Shown: piece after piece, positions 6,001 to 12,000 of the stretch | Numbering within the stretch: the stretch's first letter is position 1 | How the letters are laid out: each line of letters opens with the position of its first letter | Source of the DNA: a virus | Lineage: Duplodnaviria > Heunggongvirae > Uroviricota > Caudoviricetes | Length of the DNA stretch: 13,719 bases | Virus record (IMG/VR): IMGVR_UViG_2850761752_000002 | Reading direction: 5' to 3' (one strand) | Position numbers: made by a program

Positions 6001-9000
6001 ATACCTTCCCGTAACAACTGACGCCAGACTTTACGCACACCGTATACCTGATGATTCCCATCGTATACGCGCAGTATCTCTTTCTTCAGCCAGTCATCGC
6101 GCTGCGCACGGGCACTGCGTTTATCAGGATGATGTCGCTGTTGCTGACAGTGGTAATACGTTGACGGGGCAATATGTAGTTCACTGCATACCGGTCCGAC
6201 CCCGTACAGCTTACGCAGCTTATCCAGCAGTGGCATCACTTTTTCCAGAGGCGGTCGAACTCCGCCTTCGCAAAATAAGCGGAAGCCTGGCGAAGGATAT
6301 CGTTACTGCGGCGCAGTTCACGATTTTCACGTTCCAGCTCTTTCAGACGCTGACGTTCAGCGGTGGTGAGCCCGCCATCACCGCCTCCGGTATCCCGCTC
6401 ATGCTGGCGTACCCAGACACGCAGAGTCTCCGGTGTACAGCCAATCTTTGGGGCAATGGAACAAATTGCCGCCCACTGTGAGTCATATTCGCCCTGACTT
6501 TCCAGAACCATACGAATCGCCCTCTGACGGACTTCGGGGGAAAAACGAGTATTTTTAGTCATCCTGTTTACCTCTTTCTCAGGGAGTTTAGTCTCCAGGA
6601 TTCCCGGGGCGGTTCACTGGCGAATAGCGGAATGGCCGGGTGAGGGTGGTGAAGGCCATCTGAGTTCTTTCTTTGTCCAGACAGATAAAGCCAGTATTAA
6701 TGTTGCATACCATCATACAGTTAATCAACAAAAAGAACTTGGCACGTTTGGCGCATTCGACCATGACTGGCATACGCTTGCATTTAAATTTAAGGGCAGT
6801 AACAGCATTAATGTTACTCCGGTGCTTGATGGTGTGGATGGACAGGCGTTTGACCTGGTGAAATGGGCCAATACTGCTAATGGACTCAACAGGTTTGTCA
6901 TTACGGATATTACAGGTAGTGCAGAAACCTACCCTGTACTTATTGATACGGTGGAAGTTAAAGCAAACAAAGCTGGAGCAGCCGCATAATTGCTAAAAAA
7001 AGCCGCCAGCGGCAGGAATGGAAGCTGGCGGAGGTAATCCCAATGGAGAATGTAAAGAAAAGATGCTTTCGTACATTGGTTTTTTAAATGAAAACAATTC
7101 TCATTGTCAACCATAACGGTAAGAAATTATGACATTTATTCATCAGGTGATGCTGTACTTCTGTACGGCGGTCTGTGTGCTGTATCTTCTTTCGGGTGGG
7201 TACAGGGCTGTGCGCGATTTCTGGTGCAGGCAGATTGATAAAAGGGCCGCTGAGAAAATCAGCGCCAGTCAGTCAGCCGGAAGCAAACCCGAAGAACCCG
7301 TTACTCCTTAACAACCCCTTTCAGCGAGAAAATCCCATGTCAGAAATCACATCCCTGGTCACTGCAGAGGCAGTGAAGGAAGTCCTGCGCTCTGAAGAAG
7401 TCCGGAGCGCACTGAAACAGAAACTTCGCCAGAATCTTGAGTCGCGTCTTGATGCAGAAGTGGATGCCATTCTGGATGAGCTGCTGGGCGTAGCAGCGGT
7501 TCCTGAGCCGGAAGGTATCGCGGGTGACGGGAGTGCTTCAGATGGCGGTGAACCTACACCTGACAGCGACATGATGATGTAAGCATGCGCAAGGGACCAT
7601 CGGTGTGTGCCGGTGGTCTTTATATTGTTGTGAGCTTCCGGATTGCGGGAGACGGGGTATGTACCAGATGGAAAAAATCACAACAGGTGTGTCATACACC
7701 ACGTCAGCGGTGGGAACGGGCTACTGGTTCCTGCAGTTGCTGGACAGGTTTTCCCCGTCTCAGTGGGCGGCAATAGGCGTGCTGGGGAGTCTGTTGTTTG
7801 GGCTGCTGACATATCTGACTAACCTGTATTTCAAAATCAGAGAGGACCGTCGTAAGGCGGCGCGGGGAGAGTAAAGCGATGAAGAAAAAATACGAACTGG
7901 TTGTTAAAGGGATAAATAATTACCCGAATAAGATTACTGTTACTGTGGCACTGGAAATTGGTGGGTATCCGTCACTGTTGTTGCCAGATGTGGCGATTAG
8001 TCTTGACCGTACTGAAGATGCCACGCTGGAGTTTTACGAAGCTGAGGCGAAAAAGCAGGCGAAGCAGTTTTTCATGGATGTTGCTGCCGGGTTATGTGAA
8101 GGGGATGGTCCGTTGCCGGAAAAGCGCCCCGTAATTTTAGAGGCGCAGGATGTGTTGATAACCTACAGAGGAAAACTACCGGGAATAATTACTGGTTCTC
8201 TGAAGACTCCACCGCTGGCCTGAAGACTTAACATATCCAGGGATTTGAAATCGATAAACCCTGATAAATATCCATGAACACCAAAATCAAATACGGCCTG
8301 TCGGCTGCCGTTCTGGCGCTGATTGCCGCAGGTGCGCCTGCGCCTGAAATCCTCGACCAGTTTCTGGATGAAAAGGAAGGTAACCACACCACGGCATACC
8401 GTGATGGCGCGGGTATCTGGACCATCTGCCGCGGTGCCATCCTGGTGGATAGTAAACCTGTCGTCCCGGGCATGAAGTTGTCGAAGGAAAAATGCGACCA
8501 GGTCAACGCCATTGAGCGTGATAAGGCGCTGGCATGGGTGGAGCGCAATATTAAAGTGCCGCTGACCGAACCCCAGAAAGCGGGTATCGCGTCATTTTGT
8601 CCCTATAACATTGGCCCCGGTAAGTGTTTCCCGTCGACGTTTTACAGACGGATTAATGCTGGTGACCGCAGGGGAGCATGCGAAGCGATTCGCTGGTGGA
8701 TTAAGGACGGTGGCAGAGACTGCCGTATCCGCTCAAATAATTGCTACGGTCAGGTATCCCGGCGAGACCAGGAAAGTGCGCTGGCGTGCTGGGACATCGA
8801 CAGATAAGCAGAATATTTTGCTGAAAATAAGGCATGAGCACGCGGACGGATAACACGAAATCCTGCGAACTGGCGAAACGTAAGTGAATAAAAGTAAAAA
8901 CCCCGTTTGTTGGCACCAGGCGGGGTTTTGTGTTTCTGACCTTGAGTAAGGCAAGGGAGAACATGGCGAAGTATAAACGAATTCTGTTGAGGTTGACCAT

Positions 9001-12000
9001 GAAAAACGGCCTTGAACTGAAAGCGCCTGTAACTGATGACATCAGCAGAGCACTGGCTTTTGCCATTAAGTGGGTGGCGGTCGGTGTTGCTGTGTCCCCG
9101 ATGCTGTATGGGCTGGCAAAACTGGTCATTGCGTTGAAATCGTGAAGGGAGGATTAAGCATGTCAGACAAACTCATAACGCTGGCGAAGATCCTCTGTGT
9201 AATTGTCGGCATTTCATTTTCACTAATGCTGGTTGCTCTTTTTCTTTCCATGGCCTGGATGATGTTGTCTTCGTCGGGGCTGCTGGGGTGAACATAAACC
9301 GAATGCTTTCCGCGTTTACCGTTATTCTGCTGGTGGTCTGTGGTGCGCTGTGGCTGGCAACAGACCATTACCGTGATAACGCCATCACCTACAAAGCGCA
9401 GCGCGATAAAAAAGCCAGAGAGCTGGAGCTGGCAAACGCAACCATTACTGACATGCAGCAGCGCCAGCGTGATGTTGCCGCTGGTCGTAAGCGCCTGCGG
9501 ATCAACGCCACCTGCTCCGGTACCGTGCGTGAAGCCACCGGCACCTCCGGAATGGATAATGCAACCGGCCCCCGACTGGCAGACACCGCTGAACGGGATT
9601 ATTTCACCCTCAGAGAGCGGTTGATGACAATGCAGAAGCAACTGGAAGGGGCGCAGGAATATATCCGCACTCAGTGTATTAACTAGTATTTTTGTTATCC
9701 GGAGAATGCATGAAGAAATTACTGGTAACCGTAAAGCCTTTTCAGGGAACAATTCCGTTCCGTATTTTGCAGCGTGGTCGTGTTCTTGTTGAAGGTTCGT
9801 TCAGTGGTAAATGTACGCAATTACACTCCCGGACCTTTCAGGTGAATGCCACGAATGAAGAGCTAACCGTTGAGTGTACGATGAATGCCGCTAAATGCCG
9901 CATGGTATCCGCTGCATTACAGCCAGTGTGTTGAGCGACCTTATTAACCATGCGCGGTATTGTCGCCGTATCCCCGCATTAACAGAGACCGCAGCCCGAC
10001 CGGGAGACTCCTCTGCGCGAGTGTGCGGGGATAATCAAAAACGATACACACCGGGGTTTACCGCGTTAACGGAGCGCGGCGTTGTCCCCTCATGGTCGCT
10101 GGTCCGGTGCGATGGTGGAAGAAACCGGACGATGTGTTACCTCGCAAGCTCTGTTATGTCATGTGTCTGATTTGTGATTTAAGTCGGATAATTGTCGTTG
10201 CCATTAAGCAGAGGATTGATGACCGACAGGGTGGCATTGTTAGAATAAGACTTATTCTTATCTGTGCCGGGAATGAAAATGAAAAGAAACCTTCCGTTAA
10301 TTATTTTGTTGTCTTCTCTGGTTATGGGCTGTACGCAACATAAAACAGATATGCCCCGACAGTTGGTTAAGGCATTACCACAATATCCGGCCTATGCAGC
10401 GGCAAATTATATAAAGGGACGGGTTGATGTGAAGTTTGATATTGGTGCTGATGGTACTGTCACCCGAATTGAGTTTATCCGTTCAGAGCCGCACCATTTG
10501 TTTGATGAGCAGGTTGTAAAGGCGATGGCAAAATGGCGATTTGAGAAGGACAGGCCGTGTAAAGGCGTGAAGAAAACGTTTATCTTTAGTCCTTCTGCAC
10601 CCTGATTATTTCATCAGAAATTAATTATCACTCTGTTGTTATTCTGTACATCCCGGCAGGGTAAGTCTTGTTCCGTCGGATATGAAGATGAAATATTGTT
10701 GGAGGACAGTGGGTACCTGCTCCTGTAACCGAACGTTCATTTCTCGTTATTTTTCATGCTGGCCGGGCGCAGATGCGTTGCATCTGTTGCCAGCCTTCTC
10801 CTGCAGGCTTCAATAACCCACGCTGAAAAGTTTCCTGAACCTTTCAGATCAAGAGCGATGTTAATTTGTTCAATCATCTGGTTTGGAAATCGGATGTTGC
10901 GGGTTGTTGTTCTGCGGGTTCTGTTCTTTGATGACATAATGTTTCCCCATATTCAGTGTTGCTGATTTGTATTATCTGAAGTTGCTTTTACGTTAATTTG
11001 ATGCAGATCAATCAATACGATAGTAAGCGTCAACGGAGCACCGTATTGACGCTTATTTATTGGTGAGTGCTACGTTCCATGGCAGGAGTTCGTCAACACG
11101 GTTGGAAGGCCATTCCGGCAGTACGCTCAGGATATAGCGCAGATACGCTTCCGGATCGATACCGTTCAGTCGGCAGGTGCCGATCAGCCCGTACAGTAGC
11201 GCACCACGCTCTCCACCGTGATCGCTGCCGAAGAACATAAAGTTTTTCTTTCCGAGACAGACTGCACGAAGCGCTCTTTCCGCGGCATTATTATCCGCCT
11301 CAGCCAGACCATCATCACTGAAGTTGCACAACGCAACCCAGTGCTTCCTGATATACCGGAACGCATCTCTCAGACGGCATTTTTTCGATAACGTGTGTTC
11401 TTTCTCCTGCATCAGCTTATACAGGGAAGTCAGTAGCGGTTTACTCTGCATTTGCCTGACCGCCAGGCGTTCAGACACCGGCAACCCGCGTATTTCGTGC
11501 TCGATGGCGTACAGCTCACCGATTAGTTTCAGGGCTTCTTCCGCTGTCGCGCTTTTGGTACTGATATATACATCGTGGACTTTGCGCCGCGCATGAGCCC
11601 AGCATCCTGCTTCCGTCAACGCGCCGCCTTCTCGTTCGGCACTGAACAGCCGATCGTAACCATTAAACGCATCTGCCTGCAGGATACCCCGGAAGGGACT
11701 AAGGTGCTGCTCCGGATGTTTACCCTGATGGTCCGGTGAGTAGGCGAACCAGACCGCCGGAGGCTCTGGCGAACCGGCATTCCTGTCATCCCGGACATAC
11801 GTCCAGATATATCCTGTTTTCGCCTTCTTCCTGCCCGGTGCCAGCACTTTTACTGGTGTGTCATCAGTGTGAACTTTGCGGCTGTTCATTACATAACGGT
11901 ACAGAGCATCATTCAGCGGCGTCATTAACTGGCAGCACGCGTCAACCAAGTTGGAGAGTAATGCACGGCTCAGTTCGACACCCTGACGGGCAAAAATTTC

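Follow-up and report, generated by a model that had tools for sequence, protein, structure and literature searches.

The virus record IMGVR_UViG_2850761752_000002 in IMG/VR, a 13,719-nt stretch of DNA from a member of Caudoviricetes (hereafter the window), carries a phage-21-type lysis cassette in which an interval of 484 nt lies between the endolysin gene R, ending at position 8807, and the inner-membrane spanin (i-spanin) gene Rz. Sequence comparisons indicate that the two small open reading frames (ORFs) in this interval, ORF1 (60 aa) and ORF2 (43 aa), are two separate accessory genes in a lineage-specific cargo slot at the endolysin/spanin junction. Profile matches place both in catalogued PHROG families, where these enterobacterial prophage proteins are listed as hypothetical. 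Of 5,426 complete E. coli genomes, 990 (~18%) cover 80% or more of the insert, and the ORFs are always annotated there as hypothetical. The original prediction, made from the sequence of the window alone, had described a hairpin with a T-run and two ORFs led by ribosome-binding sites between endolysin and Rz, and all of these elements were found where it had placed them.

ORF1 runs from ATG to TGA at 8963..9145 on the plus strand, with AAGGGAGAA upstream as ribosome-binding site, and matches phrog_1115 over residues 1-60 (2.6e-42); phrog_4493 and phrog_3246 are further PHROG families of ORF1, and its near-identical homolog in locus L001 is WP_001151823.1. Compared with Salmonella copies over residues 23-60, the ratio of nonsynonymous to synonymous substitution rates (dN/dS) is 0.07-0.12 at dS 0.9-1.8, and the alternative frames in the same comparison mostly give dN/dS of 0.85 or more. 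Similarly, among the unique copies in 228 loci, the ratio of nonsynonymous to synonymous polymorphism (pN/pS) is 0.37 for ORF1 and 0.23 for its core, with 0.83-1.79 in the control frames, and the gene is intact and of the same length in 128 of 135 copies. These results point to a real protein-coding gene under strong purifying selection.

ORF2 (9160..9291, ATG to TGA, plus strand) has AGGGAGGA seven bases upstream and matches phrog_4906 over residues 1-43 (2.1e-23); the near-identical homolog in L001 is WP_001280932.1. Among the unique copies in the 228 loci its pN/pS is 0.49 (0.43 in the N-terminal half) versus 0.83-1.18 in the other frames, its dN/dS against the most distant copy is 0.23, and 140 of 143 copies are intact at the same length of 43 codons. 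ORF2 thus also behaves as a real gene, under weaker selection than ORF1. The expectation that both ORFs are conserved as coding sequences has therefore been borne out in general, with individual decayed copies such as that of ORF1 in L088. In the searches made, ORF2 is confined to E. coli, where the gene immediately 3' of it is always Rz or that of a small lipoprotein. It is found in the orders R-ant-ORF2-Rz in Shiga-toxin (Stx) phages (e.g., phiON-2011 and P13374), R-ORF3-ORF2-Rz and R-ORF1-ORF2-Rz, ORF3 being a third small gene of the slot, and in a GH108-endolysin cassette it precedes a gene for a 51-aa lipoprotein. We also considered ORF2 as a relic of the N-terminal membrane segment of Rz, to which it bears some resemblance (ILCVIVGISF and VILLVVCGAL). 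This was ruled out by a profile search with ORF2 (hmmsearch --max) of 12,289 ORFs from the fetched loci, in which no Rz was recovered and the next-best E-values were 0.8 or higher.

Both products are predicted to cross the membrane once, in agreement with the hydrophobic segments that the original prediction had noted: the best 19-residue Kyte-Doolittle means are 1.88 in ORF1 (residues 38-56) and 2.89 in ORF2 (residues 11-29). The ORF1 segment is as weakly hydrophobic as the signal-anchor-release (SAR) segment of the endolysin (1.74) and the best segment of the pinholin (1.70). AlphaFold2 on the ORF1 family alignment gives helices at residues 2-14 and 23-59 with a loop between them (mean predicted local distance difference test score 78), that is, a basic N-terminal helix (YKRILLRLTM), a loop and a long C-terminal helix with the weakly hydrophobic membrane segment. 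On this model ORF1 would be a tail-anchored protein with its basic helix in the cytoplasm and ~3 residues outside the membrane, and ORF2 is predicted to be a short bitopic peptide with its N-terminus inside and ~10 residues outside. A spanin role was rejected for both, given these ~3 and ~10 residues outside the membrane and the lack of a lipobox in either. In Pfam searches ORF1 has no match, hence no holin-family membership, and ORF2 reaches at most a sub-threshold match to DUF3930, with no holin family; the PHROG matches of both ORFs are all to families of no assigned function.

A conserved N-terminal motif, YKRILLRLTMKNG, is found in the ORF1 family. Its leader codons read TAT AAA CGA ATy CTs wTG AGG TTG ACy ATG AAA AAy GG, and lineages differ in this extension mostly by synonymous third-position changes, which argues that the extension, xYKRIL(L/M)RLTMKNG, is translated; it is the most conserved part of the protein. 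Many database copies are called as forms of 48-50 aa starting at Met13. Such calls are probably wrong, since TTG or GTG often serves as the true start. Both Met1 and Met13 are preceded by a Shine-Dalgarno (SD)-like sequence, and the internal SD (GAGG or GGAGG) with its ATG, at 8999 in the window, is retained even where the residues differ (VEANM vs LRLTM), so a second start at Met13 is possible.

The hairpin between R and ORF1 (8897..8937; AAAACCCCG-N15-CGGGGTTTT) is a predicted intrinsic terminator with T-runs on both strands, as judged from a terminator scan and a fold of the minus strand. On the plus strand the scan gives a stem-loop at 8897-8929 with 13 pairs, 6 of them G-C, and a loop of 7, followed by GTGTTTCTGA. 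Because an A-run lies upstream, the hairpin could terminate in both directions. Only 25 nt separate it from the start of ORF1, and almost every ORF1 context has the same upstream module, in which a hairpin AAAACCCCG-N13-15-CGGGGTTTT is followed by 25-50 nt and then the leader codons. The hairpin with the leader precedes ORF1 relatives in E. coli, Salmonella, a P2-like phage, another myovirus, GER2 and phiSTEC1575. Moreover, across ten lineages with the hairpin upstream of ORF1-family genes, its pairing is kept through two-sided changes at three positions, giving three compensatory pairs. This pattern indicates that the hairpin is an integral part of the ORF1 module, and that ORF1 travels as one mobile module consisting of a terminator hairpin, a short leader and a gene of ~60 codons.

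Between the R stop codon and the hairpin lies a linker (8808..8896, plus strand) that starts with GCAGAATATTTTGCTGAAAA and is conserved in relatives. Many prophages and Stx phages have the first ~154 nt of the interval, comprising linker and hairpin, but lack ORF1 and ORF2. The linker motif GCAGAATATTTYGCTGAAAA is also found in another type of cassette, 3' of a gene for a small lipoprotein, and the linker therefore behaves as a module boundary; the motif looks like a conserved module-boundary sequence used in recombination. It was also observed that the GCAGAATATTTTGCTGAAAA motif (window 8808-8830) follows the stop codon of the lipoprotein gene that ends GH108 or M15 endolysin cassettes (loci L214, L216, L135, L114 and L187). 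A small RNA (sRNA) in the linker and hairpin (8808-8937) was considered and dropped: no Rfam family matches this stretch at gathering score, and at E-values up to 10 there is at most a sub-threshold rimP-leader match. A 17-codon ORF at 8835-8888 is broken in relatives.

To define the occupancy of the slot, we compared 83 IMG/VR loci, chosen by the linker motif, that have the R linker and Rz. ORF3 alone stands between R and Rz in 27 of them, ORF1-ORF2 in 21, ORF3-ORF2-ORF1'-ORF4 in eight and ant-ORF2 in five, with rarer mixtures in the remaining 22. A gene for a small transmembrane (TM) peptide is present in all 83 loci, with no empty slot, and the gene adjoining Rz is almost always ORF2, ORF3 or an ORF1 subtype ending in RWW. 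ORF3 is a third small-TM family of ~45 aa (xFDFSKLIRE...IRWW or ...AIKG) and the sole occupant in many loci; the 28-aa "ORF4" is the tail of the RWW-ended ORF1 subtype. Every alternative occupant next to Rz is a hydrophobic single-pass peptide. The census shows, at the level of gene content, a slot filled by shuffled combinations of ORF1 (including the RWW-ended subtype), ORF2, ORF3 and sometimes ant. A single superfamily for ORF1, ORF2 and ORF3 was not established (hhalign probabilities of 5%, 0.2% and 48%). Examples of ORF3 lie at L005 2656-2797, L099 2365-2499 and L090 1655-1790, and in a variant of three copies a stop at codon 12 is followed by an SD and an ATG at codon 14, so that the product may be 32 aa. 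In L090 (1793-2043) ORF2 is followed by the C-terminal 38 residues of ORF1, and in some gene calls (P0093 and P0098) a frameshift fuses ORF2 to an ORF1 tail, giving phrog_3246-type proteins of 83-90 aa. Such juxtapositions and fusions show repeated illegitimate recombination inside the slot.

Only 1-7 nt separate the last small ORF of the slot from the Rz ATG, except where the two genes overlap (GTGA). In the window the Rz frame opens with a GTG at 9288, which shares bases with the ORF2 stop, and the RefSeq start of a near-identical Rz is an ATG equivalent to 9303, 15 nt past the GTG. The predicted overlap of ORF2 with the Rz start thus depends on the choice of start, holding for the GTG and failing for the RefSeq start. 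In the Rz type of the window the ancestral ATG has become ATA, leaving the GTG that overlaps the ORF2 stop. A comparable junction is seen in GH108 and M15 cassettes without a recognizable Rz (L088 1944-2099 and L322 3149-3331), where the small-TM gene abuts a gene for a lipoprotein of 51-60 aa with the lipobox LVGC, whose mature part is too short to span the periplasm; the L322 junction, TGGTGGTGAnATGAAyCG, is identical to the junction with Rz.

A second sample was anchored on the conserved endolysin motif CYGQVxRRDQE rather than on the linker. Among its 71 loci without the linker, R lies within 40 nt of a lambda-type Rz in 21 and within 40 nt of a DUF2514-type i-spanin gene, as in K-12 Qin, in another 21; five have a small-TM insert, two have another insert before a DUF2514-type spanin gene, and 22 have no recognizable Rz. 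The premise that R is normally followed directly by the spanin gene is therefore supported, by 42 of the 71 loci. An insert is found in 69 of the 73 endolysin-anchored loci that have the linker. These counts rule out the slot as a universal part of SAR-endolysin cassettes and show it to be specific to a lineage.

An exhaustive HMMER profile search of 1.84 billion representatives recovered only 17 ORF1 members at E-values of 0.001 or lower, from E. coli, Yersinia enterocolitica, Klebsiella aerogenes and metagenomes; the Salmonella copies came from a word-index search, and a scan of genome contigs with the ORF1 alignment gave no match. From these searches ORF1 appears to be a narrow Enterobacterales prophage family, located mostly just 5' of spanin genes and sometimes in tail modules. 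In Salmonella the order is HP1-type holin, SAR lysozyme, ORF1 and Rz; in Yersinia a 49-aa member abuts Rz in a widespread prophage remnant; in Stx phage GER2 an ORF1-type gene stands between R and Rz; and in phiSTEC1575 an M15 endolysin gene is followed by an ORF1-type gene that abuts a 60-aa lipoprotein gene. One relative is in an apparent P2-type cargo slot between the tail-fibre assembly and sheath genes, beside two small lipoprotein genes. PhiR12 phages (PhiR12_1, PV340549, among them) and PhiR5 phages, which form plaques, carry intact copies of ORF1 and ORF2. At a Salmonella prophage end (L097 2856-3168) two ORF1 paralogs of 47 aa and 55 aa are in tandem. In a myovirus baseplate module (L231 3501-3740) an ORF1-family gene is followed by a gene for a 28-aa peptide ending in TRWW. 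These two arrangements suggest that a two-peptide unit exists outside lysis cassettes too.

No promoter-like site was found on the plus strand at 7000-10218 in a simple consensus scan. ORF1 and ORF2 are co-directional with the late genes in every context. Given also the spacing of 1-7 nt, or overlap, to Rz, the two ORFs are probably expressed by read-through of the hairpin on the Q-antiterminated late transcript. Polymerase modified by Q would read through the hairpin, which would otherwise keep ORF1 and ORF2 silent or attenuated, and ribosomes finishing the last small ORF would continue into Rz.

As for function, we favor, with a probability of about 0.4, a partner-independent late membrane effect that shifts holin or SAR-endolysin triggering and so tunes lysis. 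In this model the ORF1 and ORF2 peptides would work at the inner membrane during late infection to adjust the membrane step of lysis; they could shift membrane energization or the triggering of holin or SAR-endolysin release rather than bind one specific partner. Such an effect would explain the several holin and endolysin types, the restriction to late-operon locations and the built-in attenuator. The pre-spanin position is dominant in three genera (Escherichia, Salmonella and Yersinia), lysis-cassette contexts are seen with three endolysin types, ORF2, ORF3 and the ORF1 subtype are coupled to Rz, and families without detectable similarity replace one another next to Rz. The original prediction had suggested checking whether the ORFs co-vary with the holin or Rz type. 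No such co-variation was found: ORF1 co-occurs with S21, HP1-type and other holins and with SAR-lysozyme, GH108 and M15 endolysins, and ORF2 precedes both Rz N-terminal types. This promiscuity, together with the copies in tail modules, argues against a role with a specific partner.

Several points weigh against tuning of lysis. No Pfam, NCBIfam, PADLOC or Rfam family match gives ORF1 or ORF2 a role, and literature searches by accession, PHROG id and topic found no paper on them. The promoter scan was a simple one. ORF2 is only weakly constrained among E. coli copies (pairwise dN/dS mostly 0.6-0.95), and ORF1 is a pseudogene in one cassette, with the internal stop in L088. The presence of a small-TM gene in 83 of 83 loci partly reflects common descent, since the linker-chosen sample is one lineage, and any lysis role is modulatory at most because the cassette works without ORF1 and ORF2 in many relatives. 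ORF1 relatives also occur after tail-fibre genes, in a baseplate module and in tandem at a prophage end, and such locations fit general cargo as well as a lysis role. The proposed link to lysis therefore stands in part: ORF2 abuts Rz or a lipoprotein gene and most ORF1 members are at the distal end of lysis cassettes, but ORF1 is found in tail and baseplate modules as well.

These same locations are what one would expect if the two genes were cargo that benefits the lysogen or excludes competitors, for example by blocking DNA entry of competing phages, with the lysis cassette serving as a convenient insertion hot spot. Exclusion factors are known among the small inner-membrane proteins of late operons; the HK97 gp15 moron blocks DNA entry. 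It is consistent with this explanation that ORF1 relatives occupy tail-fibre and baseplate locations and the apparent P2-type cargo slot, that the R-Rz slot also takes ant, and that its content is shuffled like that of other accessory loci. However, the absence of a promoter and the position of the terminator upstream rather than downstream are the opposite of a classical moron and argue against expression in the lysogen, the tight coupling to the Rz start is left unexplained, and PADLOC gives no match at E-values up to 1. We consider cargo of this kind a less likely explanation than tuning of lysis, but the strongest of its competitors.

A bolder form of the lysis model would unite the small-TM genes that abut the spanin gene (the ORF1 family, ORF2 and ORF3) as an unrecognized component of the lysis cassette, namely late inner-membrane peptides, attenuated by the terminator and coupled to the i-spanin, that set the lysis clock or gate the spanin or SAR endolysin independently of holin type. 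We regard this generalization as unlikely.

It is less likely still that ORF2, together with the other genes abutting Rz, is mainly a translated leader that brings ribosomes to a weak Rz start after insertion of cargo and terminator, with a peptide of little function. The stop-to-start distances of 1-7 nt or GTGA overlap, the change of the ancestral Rz ATG to ATA in the window type with a GTG overlapping the ORF2 stop, the weak pairwise constraint on ORF2, and the sharing of the position by families without detectable similarity would all be accounted for. Nevertheless, 140 of 143 ORF2 copies have retained 43 codons and a conserved N-terminal half (pN/pS 0.43), the dN/dS of ORF2 against its most distant copy is low, every alternative occupant is a hydrophobic single-pass peptide, which a mere leader need not be, and the ORF1 protein is under strong constraint.

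A type I toxin-antitoxin-like or abortive element, with ORF1 as membrane toxin and a cis-antisense RNA running from the first ORF1 codons to the bidirectional terminator, is very improbable. It was suggested by a minus-strand promoter-like site at 8999-8970 (TGGTCA, 18 nt, TATACT), with similar sites in nine of ten lineages, by the hairpin with T-runs both ways that always accompanies the gene, and by the small hydrophobic products (43 and 60 aa, one hydrophobic segment each) of a mobile module. Yet such a site turns up in 18-42% of synonymous recodings of the same peptide, and Yersinia lacks it. The conserved Y-K...L-T-M codons thus account for it, and an antisense RNA is not supported. Furthermore, no promoter was seen for a toxin mRNA, no Rfam family was found at E-values up to 10, and the predicted antisense fold improves only modestly on shuffled sequences (z = -2.2). 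Finally, decaying, functionless relics of recombination at a module junction, as might be read from the fusion of ORF2 to the ORF1 C-terminus, the 28-aa ORF1 remnant, the internal stop in L088 and the degraded state of the prophage in the window, are largely refuted by the dN/dS results, with purifying selection on both ORFs, conservation of ORF1 across genera at dS >1 and intact copies in plaque-forming phages leaving this the least credible explanation of all.

Comparison with known systems shows partial likenesses. The PHROG and RefSeq entries for these proteins carry no function, start-codon curation or context. Like the classical morons of Hendrix (HK97 gp15, lambda bor and lom), ORF1 and ORF2 are extra genes between otherwise adjacent genes, R abutting the spanin gene in the 42 loci and in K-12 Qin, and they are mobile between phage contexts; HK97 gp15 is moreover a small inner-membrane protein, as here. 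However, a moron is flanked by a promoter of its own on the upstream side and by a downstream terminator, and lysogens express it, whereas in the window the terminator precedes ORF1, no promoter was seen, and ORF2 runs into Rz. Antiholins and dual-start holins (lambda S107/S105 and S21 71/68) are small membrane proteins of the lysis cassette with two in-frame starts, and ORF1 resembles them in its place and in two possible starts, the longer form of which would have extra basic residues, but the ORF1 extension is 12 residues rather than 2-3, and ORF1 has no holin homology, has a single membrane segment and occurs outside lysis cassettes. The Mu releasin gp25 (DUF2730), a 99-aa protein with an N-terminal membrane segment in N-out, C-in orientation, acts on different SAR endolysins (PMC9239132). 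Its gene lies a few genes downstream of the SAR endolysin gene, and gp25 and ORF1 are alike in being membrane-tethered, essentially cytoplasmic proteins near a SAR endolysin with virtually no periplasmic part. ORF1 differs in its 60-aa length, in a membrane segment that hydropathy and the model place C-terminally, and in a cassette that already has a pinholin; no Pfam match of ORF1 to PF10805 (DUF2730) was found. In the P1 lyz-lydD-lydE cluster, LydD is a two-segment pinholin and lydE is a tiny gene suspected to regulate lysis, removal of which had no lysis phenotype on a plasmid (PMC9025707). These small membrane-protein genes are directly 3' of a SAR endolysin gene, as here, and provide a loose positional analog when compared by gene place.

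The other genes of the cassette are recognizable, all on the plus strand. It begins with a phage-21-type class II holin (pinholin; 7659..7874; Pfam Phage_holin_2_1, PF04971, 1.6e-32) with in-frame Met codons at 7659 and 7668 (M-Y-Q-M). The S protein of phage 21 begins M-K-S-M, and the extra Lys is thought to make the antiholin form; the longer holin form in the window would lack that Lys. A YdfR/DUF1327 gene (7879..8223; Pfam DUF1327 2.4e-45; relatives annotated "YdfR family protein") lies between the holin gene and that of the 177-aa R21-type endolysin (8274..8807; Pfam Phage_lysozyme 2.8e-24; phrog_7), whose N-terminus, MNTKIKYGLSAAVLALIAAGAP, is weakly hydrophobic and SAR-like (19-mer Kyte-Doolittle mean 1.74). 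Downstream of the insert, the Rz i-spanin gene (9288..9686; Pfam Phage_lysis 9.9e-33, the match split in two stretches) has, in an alignment with the near-identical gene of L001, a 75-nt in-frame deletion (25 aa) near 9470 between GATGTTGC direct repeats. Translations of the window and L001 in the +1 frame show a remnant of the outer-membrane spanin (o-spanin) gene Rz1 (9472..9624), from which the same deletion removes the start codon and the charged signal-peptide n-region, so that MRELKMKLCALTLPLVVSAC in L001 corresponds to ...SVMLPLVVSAC in the window. The Rz/Rz1 spanin pair of the window is thus probably defective. Two further genes lie 3' of Rz: a 74-aa ORF at 9710-9934 (phrog_2571), also seen after Rz in L090, and a gene at 10264-10605 for a lipoprotein with a TonB_C domain (Pfam 1.3e-14), for which the PHROGs label of phrog_1267, "Rz-like spanin", is probably misleading.

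The window is a decayed E. coli lambdoid prophage remnant riddled with insertion sequences (ISs). It contains an integrase gene (1-1107, minus strand) adjoining an IS1 (1681-2076), a truncated DNA methylase gene (2522-3109), three tRNA genes (Met-CAT, Arg-TCG and Arg-TCT; 3150-3399) and, 3' of these, a full-length STnc100 sRNA (3476-3666; 139 bits). The STnc100 family has been tied to prophage PasD sRNAs located upstream of holin-lysozyme operons (2026 preprint); that paper deals with the region upstream of the holin and not with the R-Rz slot. Farther on are a truncated DUF1737/SASA esterase gene (3889-4968), a further transposase fragment (5012-5467), an IS66 transposase gene (11053-12327, minus strand) and two inverted, 100% identical copies of an IS3-family element of 1,268 nt each (5349-6616 and 12452-13719), the second of which reaches the end of the window. 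Both copies have an ALIL (apical loop-internal loop) frameshift pseudoknot. They flank the entire lysis module, and the intervening segment could invert or move as a unit. No Q antiterminator gene was seen in the 13,719 nt. The lysis cassette of the window is therefore probably non-functional, though both small ORFs are intact, and this copy of ORF1 and ORF2 is probably not doing the proposed job now because it sits in an IS-riddled remnant with a damaged Rz/Rz1.

To our knowledge, lambdoid lysis cassettes are regarded as fully understood four-gene systems, and in spite of this view the ORF1-ORF2 pair stands at the endolysin/spanin junction in ~18% of complete E. coli genomes. Two features are unusual: the module is led by a terminator, and coupling to the spanin gene is constant. 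Corrected gene models are gained in any case, including the 60-aa form of ORF1 with its YKRILLRLTMKNG N-terminus, and if the peptides have no lysis role they still constitute a widespread, strongly conserved small-protein family. If they do tune lysis, they would affect burst size, the fitness of the prophage and the release kinetics of Shiga toxin, and the ORF1 module with its leading terminator would represent a new form of packaging for an accessory gene of phages. ORF2 or a related small-TM gene lies directly before Rz in many Shiga-toxin phage records, and because ORF2 holds this position there, a component of the lysis clock would influence the timing of toxin release.

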